Positions 17,502 to 26,756 of a stretch of 64,000 nucleotides of DNA are shown in pieces. A program made the position numbers and the translations under genes. Source of the DNA: PVC group bacterium (GTDB taxonomy: Bacteria > Verrucomicrobiota > Kiritimatiellia > CAIKKV01); the NCBI GenBank assembly GCA_945898015.1, contig CAMDGM010000009.1, positions 31,703 to 95,702 of the forward strand, read 5' to 3'. Numbering within the stretch: the stretch's first letter is position 1; every line of letters begins with the position of its first letter. A model generated the notes under the pieces. The model had not been told where the DNA came from. It did no database searches and was given only the letters and a program-made list of their open reading frames with translations.

Positions 17502-18683
17502 ATGAAACAGGCTATTATCGAATGTCGAGATGTGAGCAAGAAGTTTCTCCTCCAGAGAAGCGGCTCGCGGACATTGAAGGCGGCCATGCTTGGCCTATTT
17601 CACCGAATGCCGCTTCGGGAGTTCTGGGCACTTCGTGATGTGTCGTTCTCCGTCGGGGAAGGGGAAACGCTCGGGATCATCGGCGCCAACGGGGCCGGGA
17701 AAAGCACGCTTCTTTCCATTCTGGCCGGCACGCTCACGCCCAGCGCGGGATCCATCCGCGCTCAGGGGAGGATTTCTTCGCTGCTGGAGCTTGGCGCCGG
17801 ATTTCATCCGGAATTGACCGGCCGGGAGAATGTTTTCTTGTGGGGCTCGATCATGGGCCTTTCGAGAGGCAAGATGCGAGACCGCTTCGATCGTATCGTG
17901 GATTTTGCGGAGTTGCGCGACTACATTGACCAGCCCGTCAAGCACTACTCCTCGGGGATGTATGTCCGCCTCGGGTTTGCCGTGGCCGTGGAAGTGGATC
18001 CGGACATCCTGCTCGTGGACGAGGTGCTGTCCGTTGGCGACCTGTCGTTCCAGAAAAAATGTCTCCAACGCATGGATGATTTCCGGAAACGCGGGAAAAC
18101 CATGTTGATTGTTTCGCACGACATGCAGACTATCCAAGCCATCAGCAGCCAAATTCTTTTCCTCAATGCGGGTCGGGTGCTGGGTCACGGCGCTCCTGAC
18201 GCCATGGTTGGGAAATACGAGTCACACCTCCAGATGGCACACGCGGGTGTGATGCGCCGGGAGTGGGGGACGCGTGAAGCCCTGATCACACAGGTTTCCT
18301 TTTGTGGCACGGATGGCCAGGCGAAAAACGAATTTTTATGGAATGAGCCCGTTCATGTGGCCATTCGCTACCAGGCGCCTCATCGCATAGAGCAGCCGGT
18401 ATTCGGTTTTTCCATCGCCGATCAATCCGGCCACCCTCTTTATGGAAACAATACCCAGAATGAGGCTGTCTCGATTCCATGCATCGAGGGGGAGGGGATC
18501 ATTCGACTCCGGTTTCCCCGATTGCCGTTTTCCAATGGAACCGTCCTGTTTTCAGTGTCACTCCACTCCGCCGACCACAAGACGCATTTTCATCATATCG
18601 ACAACGGGTATCCGCTTCAGATCTCGGCCCCGTTCGGATTCGTGGGTTCTTATCTCCCGATTCAATGGGAGGTTCCGTCATGA
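17502..18683 (+). CDS. wzt: Polysaccharide ABC transporter ATPase with Wzt C-terminal domain
   Basis: GANGAGKST, LELGAGFHPELTGRENV, YSSGMYVRLGFA, LLVDEVLSVGD. Confidence 0.92.
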   Translation: MKQAIIECRDVSKKFLLQRSGSRTLKAAMLGLFHRMPLREFWALRDVSFSVGEGETLGIIGANGAGKSTLLSILAGTLTPSAGSIRAQGRISSLLELGAGFHPELTGRENVFLWGSIMGLSRGKMRDRFDRIVDFAELRDYIDQPVKHYSSGMYVRLGFAVAVEVDPDILLVDEVLSVGDLSFQKKCLQRMDDFRKRGKTMLIVSHDMQTIQAISSQILFLNAGRVLGHGAPDAMVGKYESHLQMAHAGVMRREWGTREALITQVSFCGTDGQAKNEFLWNEPVHVAIRYQAPHRIEQPVFGFSIADQSGHPLYGNNTQNEAVSIPCIEGEGIIRLRFPRLPFSNGTVLFSVSLHSADHKTHFHHIDNGYPLQISAPFGFVGSYLPIQWEVPS

Positions 18684-19549
18684 CTGTCACGCTTCCCGAT
18701 CTTGCCGCCGATCCGACGGTGATGGCGACCCTTCGCCGGGCCCTGCGGGAGGATATCGGTTCTGGCGACGCCACAACCCGGGCATTGATTCCCCCCCGGC
18801 TACACGCCTTCGGGCAGATCTTGGCCCGCTCCTCCTGCACGGTGGCTGGAACTGGAGTCGCTCGTTCCGTTTTTCGGCAACTCGACCAAGCCATGTCGTG
18901 TGATATTCTAATTCCGGATGGCACCCAGGCTGGTCCTGGAGATGTGATTATGACGCTTCGCGGAAATGCGGGGAAAATGCTGACCGCGGAACGCGTGGCC
19001 CTCAATTTCATGCAACGGATGACCGGCATCGCCTCCCTGACGGCGCAATTCGTTGACCGAGTCAAGCCGTATCGGGTCAAGATTCTCGATACGCGCAAGA
19101 CCACGCCAACCCTCCGCGTTTTCGAAAAGTATGCCGTCCGCTGTGGCGGAGGAACGAATCACCGGATGGGGCTTTTTGACATGGGTCTGCTCAAAGATAA
19201 TCACCGGTTTCTCTGGCGACAGGCAGGCATTCTGGACCTTGCCGCCGCAGTCCGTCGAATCCGTGAAACACACCCGGGGTTACCGATTGAGGTGGAGGTG
19301 GAAAATCTCGCCGACATGAAGACCGTGTTGAAAGAAAAGCCCGAGTGGATCATGCTCGACAATATGACGCTGGATGACATGCGAGCATGCGTCCGGATTG
19401 GTGATGGACAAGCCAAGCTGGAAGCATCCGGAGGGGTTACGCTGGAACGCGTGGGTGCCATTGCCGCCACGGGAGTGGATGCCATTTCAATCGGGGCTTT
19501 AACCCATTCCGCTCCGGCCGCCGATCTCTCTCTGGAGCTTTCGGCATGA
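18680..19549 (+). CDS. nadC: Nicotinate-nucleotide diphosphorylase (carboxylating)
   Basis: ALREDIGSGDATT, LDTRKTTP, NHRMGL, MLDN, EASGG, SIGALTHS; ATG 18680 overlaps wzt stop. Confidence 0.96.
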   Translation: MTVTLPDLAADPTVMATLRRALREDIGSGDATTRALIPPRLHAFGQILARSSCTVAGTGVARSVFRQLDQAMSCDILIPDGTQAGPGDVIMTLRGNAGKMLTAERVALNFMQRMTGIASLTAQFVDRVKPYRVKILDTRKTTPTLRVFEKYAVRCGGGTNHRMGLFDMGLLKDNHRFLWRQAGILDLAAAVRRIRETHPGLPIEVEVENLADMKTVLKEKPEWIMLDNMTLDDMRACVRIGDGQAKLEASGGVTLERVGAIAATGVDAISIGALTHSAPAADLSLELSA

Positions 19550-20325
19550 GTGCTAAAGCGTCAACTGCCCCCCTGATATTAGTTGATGTGGGGAATACCC
19601 GTTGTTCTGTGGCTGTGACGAACGGTCGTCGTATACGGCGGCTTGGCGCTGTGTTGACCCGTGAGGCCACTTTTGCCACGGTCGCTCTGGTTTTGAAAAA
19701 AGCCGCCGATCGCAACGTTTTCGCCGGCGCCGTGTTATGCTCCGTGGTGCCGGCTGTCCATGCGATCTGGATGAAAGCGCTCGCCGCTGTGAGTCGGACG
19801 CCACCCATGCTGGTAACAAACAAATTGGATTTTGGAATAGCGATTCGTTACCCCCGGCCGGAGACAATCGGGGCCGATCGATTGGTTAATGCCGCTGCCG
19901 CGGCGGCCCGTTTTGGAACACCGGTTGTGGCTCTGGATTTTGGGACGGCATTGACCTGTGATGTCGTCTCGCGTGAAGGCGCCTTTGTCGGTGGCATCAT
20001 CGCACCGGGTCTACGGTTGCTGACGGATTATCTTCACGAGCGGACGGCTCTGCTTCCCGAAGTTCCTTTTGAACCGTCTCGACGAATGATTGGACGGAGC
20101 ACCGCAGAGGCCATGAGGATTGGAGCCTGGGTCGGGTACCGTGGCCTTGTGGGAGAATTAATGAGGGGGCTGAAACGCGAATTGGGGCGTGGAACACGAT
20201 TTTGCGCGACAGGCGGGGACGTGAGTGTCCTGGCAGCCATGCTCGGACCGACCTGTTCGATAATTCCGGATCTGACATTCGACGGCATGCGACTGGTTTT
20301 TGTGCGGAATACGCCAAAAGGGTAA
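19546..20325 (+). CDS. coaX: Type III pantothenate kinase
   Basis: VDVGNT, IGADRL, DFGTALTCD, GGIIAPG, ATGG. Confidence 0.95.
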   Translation: MSAKASTAPLILVDVGNTRCSVAVTNGRRIRRLGAVLTREATFATVALVLKKAADRNVFAGAVLCSVVPAVHAIWMKALAAVSRTPPMLVTNKLDFGIAIRYPRPETIGADRLVNAAAAAARFGTPVVALDFGTALTCDVVSREGAFVGGIIAPGLRLLTDYLHERTALLPEVPFEPSRRMIGRSTAEAMRIGAWVGYRGLVGELMRGLKRELGRGTRFCATGGDVSVLAAMLGPTCSIIPDLTFDGMRLVFVRNTPKG

Positions 20326-20366
20326 GCTGGAGTTGGGATGTCAATAGGCCACACGCGGGGTTCGGC

Positions 20367-23246
20367 ATGCGGCAGTCCATAAAAATTGATTTTCATTGTC
20401 ATTCCTCTTTTAGCGATGGCGAATGGGATCCTGATAAAATTGCCCAAACCTGCTCGGCGGCTGGCGTGCGCTATGCCGCTTTGACGGATCATACCACGTT
20501 GGATGGATTGGACCGTTTTGAGGCGTCGTGCGAGCGATACGGGGTGGGGGTTGTGAATGGACTTGAACTGCCCGTATACCAGGGAAAACGCGAAGTCCAC
20601 CTTCTTTGTTATGGGTTTGACCGAACGAACGCCGCCGTGCTGAGATCGGTAAAGGCGGTGCGTGAGGCGCTTATTCTCAAAAGTGCCCCGTACGCCTTAT
20701 TTGAAAAAAAAACCATTTCGGAATTAATCCACCAGATCCATCAAGCGGGCGGAATCGTACTTCTGGCGCATCCCCTTGTGACGGAGCCTGATATTGTCAA
20801 ACTGGAGTCCCTTCTTGCGGACTTAATACAGGCCGGATTAGACGGCATTGAGGTCTATCACCCCACCGCCACCTCCGCCCAGCAGACTTATCTGCGTGAA
20901 CTTGCTGAAAAAAATGTCTTCGTTGCTTCAGGAGGGACCGACCATCATGGGTTCACTGGAGTTGAGGGTCCTGAGATGGGCGTTGAAATCCCCCTTGACG
21001 CCTGGGAATCCTTCCGTGACGTTCTGGTCAAGCGACGGAAGCAGGTGCAGCAGGAATGCGAATCCCGAAGCCGGACAGCCCGGCCCGAATTTCCGGCCAC
21101 CCGGCAATCCGGACGGATGCGCATGTTGATTTCGATGGCGTTACCCGCGATAGCCGTTGTTTTTCTCTTCGCGATAGCCCTGTTTGGCTTTTTTCTTCCG
21201 GGATATGAAAACGCGCTGATGGATCGAAAGCGGGAAATGATTCGCGAGTTGACCCGGACGGTGTGGAGCCTGCTCGACGAGGCGGAAAAGAATGTGCAAG
21301 CCGGACTGATATCGCCCGAGTCTGCCAGGATGCAAGTGGTTGAGCGAGTCCGATCCTTACGCTATGGACGTGAAGGGAAGGACTATTTTTGGATTCAAGA
21401 TCTGGCTCCCCGGATGCTCATGCATCCCTATCGTCATGACCTGGAAGGTCAGGATTTGGCCGCATTCAAAGATTCTCGGGGCATTTGTATTTTCACGGTA
21501 TTTGCCGACAAGGTTCGTCGAGACCGTGAAGGCTATGTGGACTATGTGTGGCAATGGAAGGATGATCCGTCACGAGTGGAAGCCAAAGAGTCGTATATCC
21601 GGCTCTTTGAGCCGTGGGGCTGGGTGATTGGGACTGGGTTGTATGTGCATGATGTGGTTGCCGAAATTCACATCCTGAAGCTGAACCTGTTCTATGTCAT
21701 GGGCGGTACTATTGCGATTTTGATTATGCTTCTGGCGGTTATGTTGAGGGGGGGCTGGAGAGCAGATCAGCGTCGAGCAACCGCCGAAATGCGTCTTCAG
21801 GAATCCCATGAGCGCTATCTTTCGTTGGTTCGAGCCTCCGCCGAGGGAGTCCTTTTTGTTCGGAATTTCCGATGCGTCTATGCCAATCCTATCTTTCTTG
21901 AATTGGCGGGGTGCGACTTGGAGGAGCTGCCACTGCTCGATTGCCAGGAGCTTTTCCCCGGACTTTTGCAGGAATTCTCGAGGAGCATGAATGCCAGCGC
22001 CGATGTGTACGTGGAGGCCCTGCTTCAGAGGCGCGATGGCGTCGACTTGAAGTGTCGAGTCGCCCGGAAAGCGATGTCCGAAAAGGGATCGGGTAGTTTT
22101 GTGGTTTTGGTACGCCGCCCTGAAGAGGCCGGCGTCCGGTTGTCCGCCAGACCCGATGGTCTATTAAAACGGCTTTTGAATCTACCCTCCTCGGCTGCGG
22201 AGGATATTGCTCGGGAAATCGGCATGGCGGAAACCGACGACCAAGTCGTGGGCCTTTGCCGTGGTGTGCCCGGATTGGTAAACGCCATGCTGGAGAGTGG
22301 CGCCTCCCCTGGCGCCATGGCGGGCATGATTTCCTCCATCACGGATTCGGCCACAAGCCGATTTGTTGAAATAGCTCAAAAGGAGTTAGGCCCCGCTCCT
22401 GTAGGATTTTCATTTGTGGCATTGGGCAGTCAGGGCCGAAAGGAGCAGACTCTTTTCACGGATCAGGATAACGCCATCATTTATGAGGCCCAAGGCCAAG
22501 ATGTAGACGGGTCGCGGCAGCACTATTTTTCTGCCTTAGCGTTTCGTGTATGCGAGGCCCTGACACGATCCGGTTATCGGGATTGCAAGGGCTTGGTCAT
22601 GGCCAGCAATCCAAAATGGTGTCAACCGGTGGACGTCTGGAAAGGGTATTTCACGAATTGGATTTCCAAAGCGGACGAACATGAAATGATGGAGGTTGGG
22701 ACATTTCTTGATTTGCGCTGCGTGAAAGGCGACGAAAACCTGGTCCAACTTCTTCGGACGCACATCCAAAACGAGACTGCGCGGACGCCTTTGTTCTACA
22801 CGCAAGCGGCCCGGACCGCTCTTCTTTTCAAGAGTCCGCTACGCCTTTTTGGGAATATTGTCACGGCGGGGAGTTCAAAAGAAAAGTCCGGATATCTCGA
22901 CCTGAAGACGGTCATGATGCCGATTGTCAGCTTTGCACGTCTTTATGCGCTCCATCGAGAGAGCGCTTGCACATCCACCTTGGAGCGGCTCTCGGCGCTG
23001 TCCGATAAAGGCGTCCTTTTGCCGTCGCAACATCATGACCTCGTGACCGCCTTTGAAACTTTATTGCGGTTGAGGCTGAGACATCAAGTGATGACGATTC
23101 AAAAAGGAGACGAACCGGACAACCTGATAGCGCCATCGTGTCTGGGGCATATTGATGAAGCCGTCCTGAAGGAATGTTTCAAGGAAATCGATCAGATCCA
23201 GGATAGAATTAACCGGGATTTTCTGGGGGGCGCGTTGAAACTCTAA
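20367..23246 (+). CDS. Membrane sensor fusion: PHP phosphoesterase - TM - sCache_2 - TM - PAS-like - DUF294 nucleotidyltransferase - DUF294_C
   Basis: PHP: DFHCHSSFSDG, LTDH, AHP, GLDGIEVYH, GGTDHHG; Cache: DYFWIQD...MLMHP...YVDYVWQWK...KESY...WGWVIGTGLY; NTase: ALGSQGRKEQTLFTDQDNAII, CKGLVMASNPKW; two hydrophobic helices; start set at ATG 20367. Confidence 0.88.
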   Translation: MRQSIKIDFHCHSSFSDGEWDPDKIAQTCSAAGVRYAALTDHTTLDGLDRFEASCERYGVGVVNGLELPVYQGKREVHLLCYGFDRTNAAVLRSVKAVREALILKSAPYALFEKKTISELIHQIHQAGGIVLLAHPLVTEPDIVKLESLLADLIQAGLDGIEVYHPTATSAQQTYLRELAEKNVFVASGGTDHHGFTGVEGPEMGVEIPLDAWESFRDVLVKRRKQVQQECESRSRTARPEFPATRQSGRMRMLISMALPAIAVVFLFAIALFGFFLPGYENALMDRKREMIRELTRTVWSLLDEAEKNVQAGLISPESARMQVVERVRSLRYGREGKDYFWIQDLAPRMLMHPYRHDLEGQDLAAFKDSRGICIFTVFADKVRRDREGYVDYVWQWKDDPSRVEAKESYIRLFEPWGWVIGTGLYVHDVVAEIHILKLNLFYVMGGTIAILIMLLAVMLRGGWRADQRRATAEMRLQESHERYLSLVRASAEGVLFVRNFRCVYANPIFLELAGCDLEELPLLDCQELFPGLLQEFSRSMNASADVYVEALLQRRDGVDLKCRVARKAMSEKGSGSFVVLVRRPEEAGVRLSARPDGLLKRLLNLPSSAAEDIAREIGMAETDDQVVGLCRGVPGLVNAMLESGASPGAMAGMISSITDSATSRFVEIAQKELGPAPVGFSFVALGSQGRKEQTLFTDQDNAIIYEAQGQDVDGSRQHYFSALAFRVCEALTRSGYRDCKGLVMASNPKWCQPVDVWKGYFTNWISKADEHEMMEVGTFLDLRCVKGDENLVQLLRTHIQNETARTPLFYTQAARTALLFKSPLRLFGNIVTAGSSKEKSGYLDLKTVMMPIVSFARLYALHRESACTSTLERLSALSDKGVLLPSQHHDLVTAFETLLRLRLRHQVMTIQKGDEPDNLIAPSCLGHIDEAVLKECFKEIDQIQDRINRDFLGGALKL

Positions 23247-23271
23247 ATTGTCCTTGCTTCATATCCCGTTT

Positions 23272-23312
23272 TTGCTTAAACATAACTTTGGTTGTAAAAT
23301 ACATTTATAACC
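23272..23312 (+). promoter_or_regulatory. Sigma70-like promoter of DUF485-actP with overlapping palindromic operator
   Basis: TTGCTT-17 nt-TAAAAT (23272-23300); inverted repeat GGTTGTAAA-N5-TTTATAACC (23290-23312). Confidence 0.55.
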
Positions 23313-23330
23313 TCTTATCTGGAGCAACTG

Positions 23331-23552
23331 ATGAGTAGTCCGGTGAATATGCGACGTAAAGCCTTTCTTGATTTTGGACTCTTCGGCCTTTTTTTCGTGT
23401 TCTACATGGGGGCCGCTATCGTTCAAACTCCTTTGGGTAAAAATGTGGCAACTGTGCCCGTGCTGGGTATGCCATTTGGCTTGCTCATGTCGCTTGCCAT
23501 ATTCCCGGTTTCGTGGCTCATCATCATCATCTGGTTCTGGAAAGCGAAGTAA
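23331..23552 (+). CDS. DUF485 (YjcH-like) small membrane protein, ActP partner
   Basis: 73 aa, two hydrophobic helices, FFVFY and GMPFGLLMSLAIF; directly upstream of an SSS transporter. Confidence 0.8.
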   Translation: MSSPVNMRRKAFLDFGLFGLFFVFYMGAAIVQTPLGKNVATVPVLGMPFGLLMSLAIFPVSWLIIIIWFWKAK

Positions 23553-23557
23553 TCACC

Positions 23558-25264
23558 ATGTTAAATGCACTGTGCCATAATCCTGGACCGCTTGCCGTGC
23601 TGACAACTCCTGTCGCCGAATCGTCGGGTCCCTCATCTCTCAATGCCGGGATCGTTATAGGGTTTATCCTGTTTTTTGTAATTGCCAGCATCGTAATCAC
23701 ATGGTGGACGAGCCGCTCCAGTAAGTCCGCCGGAGATTTTTATGTGGCAGGAAAAGGGGTCCCGTGGATTCAGGTCGGGATTGCCATGGTCGGCAGCTAT
23801 CTTTCGGCAGCGAGTTTTCTGGGATGTGCCGGGGATATCGGTGTTTTTGGCATCGACTCCATCTGGTTGTCGATTGGTTTTTTCGGGGGCTATATGGCGG
23901 TGTTGCTGCTGATTGCCGGCCCCTTGCGTAATGTGGGGTCGTACACGGTTGCCGGCGCGCTCCATCGGCGTTATCCCGATGACAAAATCAAGCTGTCGAT
24001 CATGGTTTGTACGGTCATCATTTCAACGTTTTATCTCGTGCCCCAGATGCTGGGCGCCGGATTGCTCTTCGAAATGCTGCTCGGTTGGAACTTCATTGCG
24101 GTTATTATCGGGCTCGGCATTCTCATGAGCGTCTACATTATTTTTGGCGGTATGAAGTCGACTCTTTACAATCAAGTCATTCAAGCGGTCTTTTTGTGGG
24201 TAGCCATGGTGGTGCTGGTCGTGATGGCCTATTTCATCGTAGGTCACGGTTCTTTTTCAGGAATTTTGGCGACCGCAACTCAGGCGGTTCCGCCCATTCT
24301 TGCGGGGAAGAATCCCGCTGTTGTTACCGCCATTGCCCACTTGCCCGCGGATCAGGCGATCATGGTCGCCCGGGAAATGATGCCTTCCGCAGATAGCGTG
24401 ATGAGTATTGGCGTCAAAAGCAACAACACGCTTGCCATGATCAGCACCGTGATTGCCCTGATTTTCGGGACCGCCGGCCTTCCACATATTTTGATCATGT
24501 TTTTTACCGTGCCCAGCGCCAAGGCGGCCAAGAAAAGTGTGACATTTTGCATCGCCGCTTTGGGGATCTTTTATTTGTGCGCCATTGTTTTGGGATTCCT
24601 GCTATTCCCGGCTATTTATCCGAAGCTGGTGAGCTGGATTTCACAGGGGCCGACTGGTGTTGGGTTAGCCAAAAACATGGCAGTCTTGGAGATTAGCCAG
24701 ATGGTGGGGGGGCCCTGGCTGATGGCCATTGGCGCCGCCGGCGCCGTGGCCGCCATTCTCTCTACCGCGGCAGGATTGATGATTACGGTCGCATCCTCCA
24801 TCAGTCATGATCTTTATAAAGTCTATATTAATCCGGCGGCAACCGAGAAACAGGAACTGGGCATCGCTAAAATCACCACGCTTCTGATGTCCGCCATTGC
24901 GGTCGGTTTGGCGGTTTTGCTCAAAAAGGAAAACATTGCATGGCTGGTCATGCTGGCGTTCAGCATTGCTGCCAGTGCTATTTTTCCCGCCATGTTGGCG
25001 ACGCTCTGGTGGAAACGTGCCACCCGGCAAGGCGTTATTGTCAGCATTCTGACGGGATTAACGATTTCGGTGCTGTTCATCATCATGTTGCTGACCGGCG
25101 TCAAGAATGACCCTCTATTTGGACTTCCTACCGCTGGTGGACCAGGTGTTTTCGGCGTCACAGGTGCGTTTTTGGCGCTTATTGTGGTAAGCCTTTTGAC
25201 CCGTGACACGGGCAAGGACTCAGCCGAGTTCCTGGCACTGGCACATAAATCCGAGGACGATTGA
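23558..25264 (+). CDS. actP: Cation/acetate (monocarboxylate) symporter, ActP-type solute:sodium symporter
   Basis: DFYVAG, YLSAASFLG, FYLVPQMLGAG, FGGMKST, FGTAGLPHILIMFFTVP, AILSTAAGL, SHDLY; start ATG 23558. Confidence 0.88.
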   Translation: MLNALCHNPGPLAVLTTPVAESSGPSSLNAGIVIGFILFFVIASIVITWWTSRSSKSAGDFYVAGKGVPWIQVGIAMVGSYLSAASFLGCAGDIGVFGIDSIWLSIGFFGGYMAVLLLIAGPLRNVGSYTVAGALHRRYPDDKIKLSIMVCTVIISTFYLVPQMLGAGLLFEMLLGWNFIAVIIGLGILMSVYIIFGGMKSTLYNQVIQAVFLWVAMVVLVVMAYFIVGHGSFSGILATATQAVPPILAGKNPAVVTAIAHLPADQAIMVAREMMPSADSVMSIGVKSNNTLAMISTVIALIFGTAGLPHILIMFFTVPSAKAAKKSVTFCIAALGIFYLCAIVLGFLLFPAIYPKLVSWISQGPTGVGLAKNMAVLEISQMVGGPWLMAIGAAGAVAAILSTAAGLMITVASSISHDLYKVYINPAATEKQELGIAKITTLLMSAIAVGLAVLLKKENIAWLVMLAFSIAASAIFPAMLATLWWKRATRQGVIVSILTGLTISVLFIIMLLTGVKNDPLFGLPTAGGPGVFGVTGAFLALIVVSLLTRDTGKDSAEFLALAHKSEDD

Positions 25265-25328: not shown

Positions 25329-26756
25329 ATGGGCCACGCCCTGATCGCCAGCTTATTTCTACTTCTGTCGTGTTTCCCGGCATGGGCGGATCTTTTGAAT
25401 TCCACCCCTCCGGCGTACCCGGTCAAACTCATTTTCATCCATCATTCCACCGGAGAAAATCTTCTGCGCAATGATTATGGCCGCTTGGGGATTGCGCTTA
25501 AAACCAACAACTACTTCGTCAGCGACACGAATTATGGGTGGGGACCGGATTCTATCGGTGACCGCACTGACATTCCCGATTGGATCGAATGGTTCCGGTC
25601 CACTTCCACGACAACGGTTGTGGATGCGCTTTTAGCGGAATACGGGAAGCACGCATCGTATTCACGGCTCGCCGCCGATCCTGGGGGTCAAAACTCGATT
25701 ATACTCGTCAAATCCTGTTTCCCCAACTCTAACCTGGAAGGCAATCCCAATGATCCGCCTTCTTCGGAGGGGTGGTTGACGGTGGGTCACGCCAAGTGGG
25801 TTTACAATCAGCTATTGACCTTTTCCCGCGCGCATCCGGACAAACTGTTTGTTGTGATCACCGCGCCGCCCGTCCAGGATCCGACTTATGCTCTTAACGC
25901 CCGCGCGTTCAATAACTGGCTCGTTAATCATTGGCTTGTGGACAATCAATATCCATTTAAAAACGTAGCGGTTTTCGATTTTTACAATGTGCTGACTGAT
26001 CCGCAGGCCCATCACCGATATAACCCCGCCACGGCGACCATCGAGCATAAGGTCGTATCCGGGCACAACACCTCCGCTTTTGCCTCATCGCCAGATGATG
26101 ACCATCCTAATGTGGCGGGAAGCCAAAAAGCGACATCGGAATTAGTGCCCTTGCTGAACATCTTTTACAATAGCTGGAAAACAGCAAGTCGTGTCCGCAC
26201 GACAACCGCATATTCCTCTCCCGTGCTGGACGGTTGGATTCTTGAGTCCTCAGAAAACAGCAGCATCGGGGGAGCGGTTAATAATTCGGCCGATACGTTA
26301 AGGGTTGGAGACGACATGGCAAATAGGCAATACCGAAGCATTTTGTCATTCAGTTTGAATTTGCCCACCAATGCCGTCATGGCCACCGCTAAGCTTAAGA
26401 TCAAAACGCATTCACTCGTCGGGACGGATCCGTTTGCGACACACGGAAAACTGCTGGTGGATATCCATAAATTTCGTTTCGGGTCAAGCCCCGCTCTTTT
26501 AAATGAGGATTTTCTGGCGGCCGCTAATCAGGCCGCCGCGGCCTCGCTTGCAGGGTCTCCGGTCAATGGTTGGCTGACAGCGGGAATCGCAAGCTCGGGC
26601 CTTCCCTATATTAACTCGAAGGGGATCACGCAATTCCGGCTGCGTTTTTCGAAAGGCGATAACGACGATTTCAACGAAGACTTCTATGGTATATATAGCG
26701 GCCATACCGCTTCAACCAATCAACCCAAGTTGATCATCCAGTACTATGTTCCGTAA
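25329..26756 (+). CDS. Secreted protein: SGNH-like hydrolase domain plus DNRLRE-like C-terminal domain
   Basis: Signal peptide (PAWA); IFIHHSTG, KSCFP, DDDHPN; C-terminal DGWILESSE...TQFRLRF...PKLIIQYYVP. Confidence 0.65.
   Translation: MGHALIASLFLLLSCFPAWADLLNSTPPAYPVKLIFIHHSTGENLLRNDYGRLGIALKTNNYFVSDTNYGWGPDSIGDRTDIPDWIEWFRSTSTTTVVDALLAEYGKHASYSRLAADPGGQNSIILVKSCFPNSNLEGNPNDPPSSEGWLTVGHAKWVYNQLLTFSRAHPDKLFVVITAPPVQDPTYALNARAFNNWLVNHWLVDNQYPFKNVAVFDFYNVLTDPQAHHRYNPATATIEHKVVSGHNTSAFASSPDDDHPNVAGSQKATSELVPLLNIFYNSWKTASRVRTTTAYSSPVLDGWILESSENSSIGGAVNNSADTLRVGDDMANRQYRSILSFSLNLPTNAVMATAKLKIKTHSLVGTDPFATHGKLLVDIHKFRFGSSPALLNEDFLAAANQAAAASLAGSPVNGWLTAGIASSGLPYINSKGITQFRLRFSKGDNDDFNEDFYGIYSGHTASTNQPKLIIQYYVP

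Follow-up and report, generated by a model that had tools for sequence, protein, structure and literature searches.

A 64,000-nucleotide stretch of genome from a PVC group bacterium (GTDB lineage Bacteria; Verrucomicrobiota; Kiritimatiellia; CAIKKV01; assembly GCA_945898015.1, contig CAMDGM010000009.1, positions 31,703–95,702 of the forward strand), referred to below as the window, contains a gene for a 959-residue membrane protein in which a PHP phosphoesterase, an sCache_2 sensor placed between two transmembrane (TM) helices, a PAS domain and a DUF294 nucleotidyltransferase are joined in one chain. It lies upstream of genes for a small two-TM protein and a sodium:solute symporter (SSS), a neighbourhood that recurs in related genomes. 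Surveys of DUF294 loci show that phosphoesterase partners of four families (PHP, Metallophos, DEDDh and HD) alternate and are mutually exclusive. These data, together with the modelled fold of the transferase and the predicted ligand pocket of the sensor, are consistent with the idea that the fusion and SSS locus forms a carboxylate-gated writer/eraser switch acting on a protein near the transporter, a reading to which we assign a probability of roughly 0.45.

Domains of the fusion protein

The gene and the domains of its product lie as follows, in window coordinates.

20367–23246, + strand: 959-residue fusion gene, PHP-TM-sCache_2-TM-PAS-DUF294-DUF294_C, stop codon 23244–23246 included (list of open reading frames (ORFs), sequence, Pfam)
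20367–21050, + strand: N-terminal cytoplasmic PHP phosphoesterase, TrpH/YciV/Cv1693-like, residues 1–228 (Pfam, PDB profiles)
21141–21197, + strand: TM helix 1, residues 259–277 (hydropathy; continuous helix 250–311 in the full-length model)
21216–21668, + strand: extracytoplasmic sCache_2, residues 284–434, with a predicted C2/C3-carboxylate pocket (Pfam, 110.6 bits)
21687–21743, + strand: TM helix 2, residues 441–459 (hydropathy; helix 427–490 in the full-length model)
21810–22121, + strand: cytoplasmic PAS domain, about residues 482–585 (weak profile matches, PAS-like strands in the model)
22266–22679, + strand: DUF294 nucleotidyltransferase, residues 634–771, with G687-S688, D699, D701 and D782 (Pfam)
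22791–23222, + strand: DUF294_C helical 'substrate-binding' domain, residues 809–952 (Pfam)

Alignment with 22 homologues placed the start of the gene at the ATG at 20367 and not at an upstream TTG at 20202. Two hydrophobic segments (hydropathy 2.73 over 19 residues for helix 1 and 2.44 for helix 2) flank the Cache domain, a layout shared with carboxylate sensors, which places the PHP domain and the PAS-DUF294 portion both in the cytoplasm, one on each TM helix, with the Cache domain outside. The PAS domain was recognised from matches to PAS_8 (residues 482–536; E 0.0012, 19.1 bits, below the cut-off of 21.8) and TIGR00229 (E 0.0021), and from PAS-like strands at residues 494–583 of the full-length model. 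Pfam found no cNMP_binding or CBS domain in the fusion protein; PHP, sCache_2 and PAS stand in their place.

Among solved structures, those matched best by the Cache domain are Adeh_3718 (PDB 4k08, E 7.6e-31) and PscD (5g4y, E 1.7e-29). According to the structural description of Adeh_3718, acetate is contacted by Tyr94, Trp96, His107, Tyr147, Trp149 and Lys160, with Leu129, Phe130 and Phe133 round its methyl group (PMC3831638); the seven propionate contacts of PscD are described as identical in PscD, McpP and Adeh_3718, sensors that bind C2/C3 carboxylates (PMC5062169). All seven pocket residues are present in the fusion protein, where Y340, W342, H353, F376, Y393, W395 and K407 correspond to Y94, W96, H107, F130, Y147, W149 and K160 of 4k08 (counted along the alignment), and I375 and F379 occupy two methyl-pocket positions of Adeh_3718. 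The same seven residues are invariant in 86 homologues. The fusion sensor is like those of PscD (5g4y/5g4z), McpP and Adeh_3718, with E values of about 1e-30 and seven identical contacts, whereas the outputs differ, being methyl-accepting chemotaxis in those proteins and a nucleotidyltransferase plus a phosphoesterase in the fusion. The conservation of the pocket suggests a C2/C3 monocarboxylate (acetate, glycolate, propionate or pyruvate) as the ligand of the sCache_2 domain, and backs an earlier proposal, made from the letters of the window alone, that the external Cache domain would bring the enzyme under the control of an extracellular substrate.

Both transferase families were matched well above their Pfam cut-offs (DUF294, PF03445, 144.9 bits against 21; DUF294_C, PF10335, 125.1 bits against 22.5). 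Residues G687, S688, D699, D701 and D782 are invariant in the 86 homologues and across a set of 66 DUF294 modules that mixes different types. We take the G-S pair, the D-x-D and the third acidic residue to be catalytic residues of the pol-beta type, and the G-x11-D-x-D spacing (G687 to D699-x-D701) to be the motif of GlnE and DrrA. Profile searches with residues 600–959 returned no PDB relative at E up to 1, and the GlnE and GlnD families of Pfam had no match in the fusion protein. A model of residues 594–959, built on the 66 DUF294 modules (predicted local distance difference test score (pLDDT) 93.3), was matched best in Foldseek by DrrA with Rab8a (6yx5_B; E 9.6e-9, template-modelling scores 0.63/0.68), followed by the N-terminal domain (1v4a, E 2.8e-8) and the adenylylation domain (3k7d, E 5.9e-8) of GlnE, with template-modelling scores of 0.60–0.68 against the DrrA and GlnE matches. 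Aminoglycoside nucleotidyltransferases (ANT/KNTases), which act on small molecules, matched only at E >1e-2. The modelled DUF294 module has its nearest structural relatives in two protein AMPylators, DrrA and GlnE, and DUF294_C has been grouped with the C-terminal domains of GlnD/GlnE-type enzymes (PMC3710099).

At the other end of the chain, the Pfam PHP family matched residues 8–84 (45.6 bits, cut-off 26.4), and profiles of the domain matched PDB entries 2yb1, 3e0f, 9etk and 7ug9, the last a 5'-3' exoribonuclease, at E of about 1e-33. The metal ligands H10, H12, D17, H42, E67, H78, H135, D192 and H194 are invariant in 86 sequences and align, by hand count, to H7, H9, D14, H39, E64, H75, H191, D248 and H250 of 2yb1. 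By profile and by metal ligands the fused domain thus belongs with the TrpH/YciV-type PHPs (RNase AM; Cv1693, 2yb1). It differs from them in being tethered to a membrane receptor, in being about 60 residues shorter, without the segment found between chain residues ~101 and 162 of 2yb1, and in scoring far below the curated NCBIfam cut-offs (107.7 versus 400 for NF041577, 3',5'-nucleoside bisphosphate phosphatase; 80.3 versus 375 for RNase RNM). The predicted catalytic residues of PHP and transferase alike are intact across the homologues.

This architecture is widespread. Cache and DUF294 domains occur together in all of the best 120 homologue clusters, and PHP with them in 118; the proteins come in two size forms, one of ~960 residues and one of ~1230 residues with extra PAS and CBS domains, and their source names include Planctomycetes, Armatimonadota, Clostridia, Fibrobacterota and Latescibacteria.

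Alternation of phosphoesterase partners

Genes combining cNMP, CBS and DUF294 domains, accompanied by an RNase_T gene, have been placed in actP/acetate regulons of Pseudomonas (PMC9927547, PMC5715377, PMC9765439), and DUF294/COG2905 genes are described there as among the most dependent on the acetate two-component system, with a chemistry that is still unknown (10.64898/2026.09.07.749794). PP_0354/PP_0353 is reported as a direct, strong MxtR/ErdR target whose deletions cause moderate defects on pyruvate and propionate (PMC9927547, 10.64898/2026.09.07.749794), and PA3232–PA3235 as up ~16-fold on propionate (PMC9765439). The fusion protein shares with such COG2905 pairs (P. putida PP_0354/PP_0353, P. 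aeruginosa PA3233/PA3232, P. fluorescens Pflu5625) the DUF294 and DUF294_C domains, a phosphoesterase partner, and a link to ActP/DUF485 and short-chain carboxylate use. The COG2905 proteins, by contrast, are soluble; their sensors are cytoplasmic cNMP and CBS domains and their DEDDh partner is encoded by a gene of its own, whereas the fusion has an extracytoplasmic sCache_2 sensor and a fused N-terminal PHP. No cNMP or CBS sensor was found in the fusion protein, and no adjacent RNase_T/DnaQ-like gene in the window. sCache_2-PAS-(CBS)-DUF294 receptors that have a Metallophos gene as neighbour show the same core, carboxylate pocket and SSS neighbourhood as the fusion, but are without the N-terminal PHP and have instead a separate phosphoesterase of ~250 residues and of an unrelated fold family. 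No papers on Cache-DUF294 receptors or on the PHP fusion were found in the literature.

Partners were counted in three sets of loci. Set A holds the 71 loci that a single scan of species-representative genomes yielded; for set R, 41 genomes of the window's order supplied 11 loci, with flanks of 1.5 kb only; and set B has 40 regions round DUF294 matches, 37 of them from the L066 phylum sample (121 genomes, 37 with a match) and three from two further genomes. Two loci with a Cache protein only (L058 and L075) were dropped from the counts. Locus genes were our own ORF calls, labelled by hidden Markov models (HMMs) made from Pfam-named clusters and checked by further Pfam scans, and a partner was defined as a phosphoesterase gene within two genes of the DUF294 gene. 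The counts were as follows.

PHP fused, 23 loci (set A 16, set R 7): Metallophos, DEDDh or HD partner 0
PHP as a separate adjacent gene, actinobacterial (L028, L031, L043), 3 loci: Metallophos, DEDDh or HD partner 0
Cache-DUF294 without PHP, set A, 36 loci: Metallophos 25, HD 1, AP_endonuc_2 3, none 7 (two of them truncated at a contig end)
Cache-DUF294 without PHP, set B, 3 loci: Metallophos 2
Cache-DUF294 without PHP, set R (window's order), 3 loci: Metallophos 3
No Cache, at least 560 residues (cNMP-CBS where scanned), 32 loci: DEDDh 17, Metallophos 3, HD 1, none 11
Short, below 560 residues, often CBS-DUF294, set B, 17 loci: DEDDh 5, none 12

Not one of the 26 PHP loci has another phosphoesterase partner, and Pfam found no Metallophos, RNase_T or HD match among the 83 ORFs that flank them, as against 28 of the 39 PHP-less Cache-DUF294 loci of sets A and B with such a partner (Metallophos 27, HD 1). 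Fisher's exact test between the Cache types (0/19 versus 25/36, before three more loci were resolved) gave p = 2.5e-7 with no phylogenetic correction, a value that overstates the case because the rows are related. The mutual exclusivity of the PHP form and the DEDDh gene, which the sequence-only reading of the window had put up for survey, is thus borne out. Its further claim that PHP takes the place of a DEDDh exonuclease stands as a replacement but needs amending as to what is replaced: the closest Cache-type relatives use Metallophos and occasionally HD, and DEDDh goes with the cytoplasmic cNMP-CBS forms. The clustering of DUF485-actP with cNMP/CBS-DUF294 and DEDDh genes, on which that reading drew, is documented and was reproduced here in the one-phylum sample (17 of 32 long cytoplasmic DUF294 genes with a DEDDh gene at most two genes away). 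The AP_endonuc_2 genes downstream of Cache-DUF294 (L019, L035, L036) were not counted as partners, since sugar epimerase, Nfo and CbiR models match them about equally.

A quick tree search on 120 rows of the catalytic region places the PHP forms in two well-supported clades, one of 19 rows that includes the window (support 99) and one of eight rows (support 95), seven of which are PHP forms and include the three with a separate PHP gene. A weakly supported clade (81, not starred) unites the 19-row PHP clade with Metallophos-type genes of the window's order, and PAS-DEDDh and HD partners are nested within the same large clade. Across starred, well-supported branches the partner changes at least twice for PHP and at least six times for Metallophos, which indicates that partners have been exchanged repeatedly.

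The DEDDh partners match DnaQ/RNase T-type models. Those of cytoplasmic DUF294 proteins belong to a large group of ~700 residues with a C-terminal RNase_T domain and often a PAS domain, so that the exonuclease can carry a sensor of its own. When one DEDDh query was searched against longer proteins, none of the 120 listed carried PF03445, which does not show that single-chain DEDDh-DUF294 fusions are absent; most were PAS-DEDDh proteins of ~700 residues. The HD partners match a cyclic di-GMP (c-di-GMP) phosphodiesterase model, and at two loci whose DUF294 genes differ in sensor type (L040:6708-7877, L157:8072-9256) an HD-GYP-like (HD_5) protein, in one case with a GAF domain, is encoded immediately next to the DUF294 gene, at the position filled elsewhere by PHP, Metallophos or DEDDh. 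At three loci (L133:6104-10024, L135:6974-10891, L141:4536-8422) a small DEDDh gene beside DUF485-SSS has a DUF294 gene on either side; against the model of the DUF294 catalytic domain the longer cNMP-CBS copy gives a very weak score or none (E 1.4e-8, 1.1e-9 and no match) and the shorter CBS copy a normal one, and these pairs may consist of a dead sensor copy and an active copy. A sensor-less DUF294 subfamily of ~390–430 residues, whose setting differs and is itself conserved, is found downstream of valyl-tRNA synthetase and near an amidase (GatA-like) gene at three further loci (L148, L149, L151), with an HD + HD_assoc gene in two of the three, a CBS-pair gene in one, and no transporter nearby.

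The transporter locus

The genes around the fusion gene are the following.

18479–19549, + strand: nadC (QRPTase; ORF as listed)
19546–20325, + strand: coaX (Pan_kinase, E 2.7e-49; Pfam)
23331–23552, + strand: 73-residue protein with two TM helices, encoded where SSS carboxylate transporters have their DUF485/DUF4212 small subunit (ORF, hydropathy, synteny)
23558–25264, + strand: 568-residue sodium:solute symporter, ActP/MctC-like (Pfam SSF)

The gaps between coaX and the fusion gene, between the fusion gene and the small ORF, and between the small ORF and the SSS gene measure 41, 84 and 5 nucleotides. An SSS gene lies within 3.2 kb of the DUF294 gene in 22 of the 26 PHP loci (set A, 15 of 19; set R, 7 of 7), as well as in 28 of the 36 PHP-less Cache-DUF294 loci of set A, usually with a DUF485- or DUF4212-like small ORF. 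Linkage of the fusion's homologues to SSS transporters, on which the sequence-only reading depended, is therefore confirmed, as are the arrangement it described in the window (fusion gene, gap of 84 nucleotides, small ORF and SSS gene on one strand) and the lack of an exonuclease gene nearby, no RNase_T (DEDDh) family being found by Pfam among the 52 window ORFs of at least 90 residues. The genome (3.29 Mb in 72 contigs, 89.6% complete) holds two RNase_T matches, both on other contigs (C12, C16), and a single DUF294 gene, the present one; a separate TrpH-like PHP gene lies on contig C20 (G000:C20).

The description of the two downstream genes as a DUF485-ActP pair holds in part. A small ORF with two hydrophobic helices does lie directly upstream of an ActP-like SSS gene, whose product matches SSF at 238 bits in Pfam, but the curated NCBIfam scores are missed (ActP subfamily 339.9 versus 750 and 276.7 versus 1099; MctC 330.9 versus 670) and DUF485 falls below its Pfam cut-off (E 6.7e-4; 20 bits versus 28). 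Seven of seven homologues of the 73-residue protein adjoin an SSS gene. Against DUF485-positive neighbours of DUF294 loci, hhalign gave a probability of 40% (E 2.9e-4, 69 columns), and local HMMs of DUF485-like and DUF4212-like neighbours gave no match at E up to 10. Given the weak DUF485 score, the label is one of position and topology and is not proven by sequence. DUF485 and DUF4212 have been assigned to ActP-like transporters (Price et al., 10.1101/072470), and a nearby COG2905/RNase T gene was reported as cofit with a DUF4212-SSS transporter (Supplementary Note 2 of the same work).

Upstream, the proximity of coaX had been taken as a possible link to CoA supply. This did not hold up: CoaX is a neighbour at one related locus (L079, from a relative in the genus) and at none of the 71 loci of set A, and conserved coaX/nadC linkage was rejected, since phmmer, run with CoaX and NadC of the window on the ORFs of every locus, matched them at L079 alone. 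Between 18400 and 27000, predicted promoters and terminators were about as numerous as in shuffled sequence, and none of those listed lies in the gaps at 20326–20366 and 23247–23330. Taken as a whole, the earlier interpretation is partly supported.

Other genes recur in this setting. Downstream of the SSS gene, a 475-residue protein (25329–26756, + strand) has a hydrophobic N-terminus and no Pfam family (a weak DNRLRE match, E 7e-4), and its homologue is found upstream of the fusion gene in a relative in the genus (L078). A second acetate-related transporter, a Gpr1/Fun34/YaaH (SatP-type acetate/succinate) channel, is encoded at L028:6731-7783, L043:6732-7784, L031:6723-8120 and L120:10538-11107, where its gene either separates or adjoins the SSS gene and the PHP and Cache-DUF294 genes; the actinobacterial loci with a separate PHP gene are among those that have it. 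A protein of ~415 residues without a Pfam family recurs in 13 loci (for example L051:2525-3769, L029, L048, L034 and L044), with the SSS gene on one side and the Metallophos and Cache-DUF294 genes on the other, mostly in metagenome-assembled genomes of Bacteroidota/Ignavibacteria type, and is often accompanied by a TPR-like protein of ~255 residues.

The proposed switch and its alternatives

We propose that the fusion is a one-component transmembrane receptor enzyme, in which binding of a C2/C3 monocarboxylate by the periplasmic sCache_2 domain would be relayed by the pair of TM helices to the catalytic modules, of which there are two, in the cytoplasm. The GlnE/DrrA-like DUF294 and DUF294_C domains, carried by way of PAS on TM helix 2, would attach a nucleoside monophosphate (NMP) to a protein hydroxyl, and the metal-dependent PHP phosphoesterase on TM helix 1 would hydrolyse the same phosphodiester and so reverse the mark. 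This writer/eraser pair would work in the manner of the nucleotidyltransferase and HD domains of GlnD, and the switch may tune the uptake or first-step metabolism of short-chain carboxylates through the adjacent small subunit and SSS transporter.

The pairing of a transferase with a metal-dependent hydrolase that reverses it is the logic of GlnD and of DrrA/SidD. Of these systems, namely GlnD (nucleotidyltransferase plus uridylyl-removing HD), GlnE, and DrrA/SidM with the de-AMPylase SidD, the nearest folds to DUF294 are DrrA and GlnE; the fusion differs from them in its sensor domains, and the candidate erasers here are PHP, Metallophos, DEDDh or HD. The reaction that these four would have in common is hydrolysis of a phosphodiester with release of a nucleoside 5'-monophosphate, which is what removal of AMP or UMP (adenosine or uridine monophosphate) from Tyr, Ser or Thr would need. 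To our knowledge, protein de-nucleotidylase activity is known for HD, in GlnD, and not for the other three folds. A narrower version of the proposal, in which external acetate toggles a receptor-type protein nucleotidylyltransferase between AMPylating or UMPylating the SSS protein, the small subunit or an acetate-activating enzyme and de-modifying it through PHP, with all four phosphoesterases serving as interchangeable de-nucleotidylases, would make the fusion the first enzyme of that receptor type, and we regard it as doubtful in that specific form. A predicted complex of the DUF294 module, the SSS protein and the 73-residue protein scored 0.00, which is no verdict either way.

Several points weigh against the proposed switch. 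The modelled kinship to AMPylators would be compatible with acceptors other than protein, and the papers found contain no biochemical data on any DUF294 protein. The solved TrpH/YciV-type members are nucleotide or RNA phosphoesterases by their PDB titles, and since PHP is TrpH/YciV-like and DEDDh is DnaQ/RNase T-like, a nucleic-acid substrate would be equally natural for the partner enzymes. Deletion of PP_0354/PP_0353 is reported to cause no acetate defect in the account given in PMC9927547. Within two genes no partner was found at 11 of 39 PHP-less Cache loci or 11 of 32 long cytoplasmic forms, and 12 of 17 short CBS-DUF294 genes of set B have no nearby phosphoesterase; with so many partnerless loci, a dedicated eraser is not universal. 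The locus counts rest on related genomes and on our own ORF calls, and the full-length model (mean pLDDT 84.5, predicted template-modelling score 0.46) does not give reliable domain packing.

A nucleic-acid substrate leads to a different scheme, in which DUF294 adds nucleotides to an RNA end that a PHP, DEDDh or Metallophos nuclease trims, as in the end-turnover pair of CCA-adding enzyme and RNase T, and external carboxylate controls the transporter operon post-transcriptionally. The partner families are indeed classical nucleases: PHP is closest to TrpH/YciV-type proteins, including the 5'-3' exoribonuclease 7ug9, and to the NF041577 bisphosphate phosphatase model, and the DEDDh partners match DnaQ/RNase T-type models. 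Yet the best folds for the transferase are protein AMPylators, with no RNA nucleotidyltransferase among the matches listed, and Pfam and NCBIfam scans found no RNA-binding domain in the fusion protein. It is also hard to see 5'-3' exonucleases of PHP type, 3'-5' exonucleases of DEDDh type and HD-GYP-like proteins acting on the same RNA end, although they substitute for one another. On balance we consider RNA-end turnover unlikely. Somewhat less likely still is that DUF294 makes a diffusible nucleotide signal on sensing carboxylate (a cyclic or linear oligonucleotide, or a modified nucleotide) which the phosphoesterase degrades, in the way of GGDEF/EAL or CD-NTase/phosphodiesterase pairs. A synthase and a hydrolase on one receptor are a common second-messenger design, the PHP, Metallophos, DEDDh and HD-GYP-like families all include nucleotide or oligonucleotide phosphodiesterases, and the HD partners match a c-di-GMP phosphodiesterase model. 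Such a signal sits poorly, however, with a fold nearest to GlnE and DrrA and with no cGAS/DncV-like or OAS structure among the matches listed, with the conserved helical DUF294_C, a GlnD/GlnE-type C-terminal domain by the grouping cited above (PMC3710099), and with loci in which no candidate effector or receptor gene recurs except the transporter.

The PHP domain might also have a role unrelated to the transferase, such as housekeeping turnover of 3'-phosphoadenosine 5'-phosphate (pAp) or oligonucleotides, the fusion having arisen as a neutral accident of gene order. TrpH-like PHP genes that stand alone are frequent in the order, with one in the window's own genome (G000:C20), and the fused PHP lies below every curated equivalog cut-off. 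But 118 of the 120 best clusters, from several phyla, retain the fusion, PHP occurs also as an adjacent separate gene at the three actinobacterial loci, other phosphoesterase partners are missing from all 26 PHP loci, and the genome's separate TrpH-like gene means that the fused copy is not its sole one; we hold an accident to be highly improbable. The carboxylate-gated writer/eraser switch on a protein near the transporter accordingly remains our preferred reading, at the probability given at the outset.

DUF294/COG2905 proteins are widespread, and with the Cache-type receptors an external ligand can be predicted for them. In the PHP fusion the transferase is physically tied to its partner hydrolase, and the alternation of four unrelated phosphoesterase folds would narrow the reaction that they share to nucleoside-5'-phosphodiester hydrolysis. 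Together, the fusion, the small protein and the SSS transporter make up a compact three-gene system in which bench tests may show what DUF294 enzymes modify and how the uptake of short-chain acids would be tuned post-translationally.

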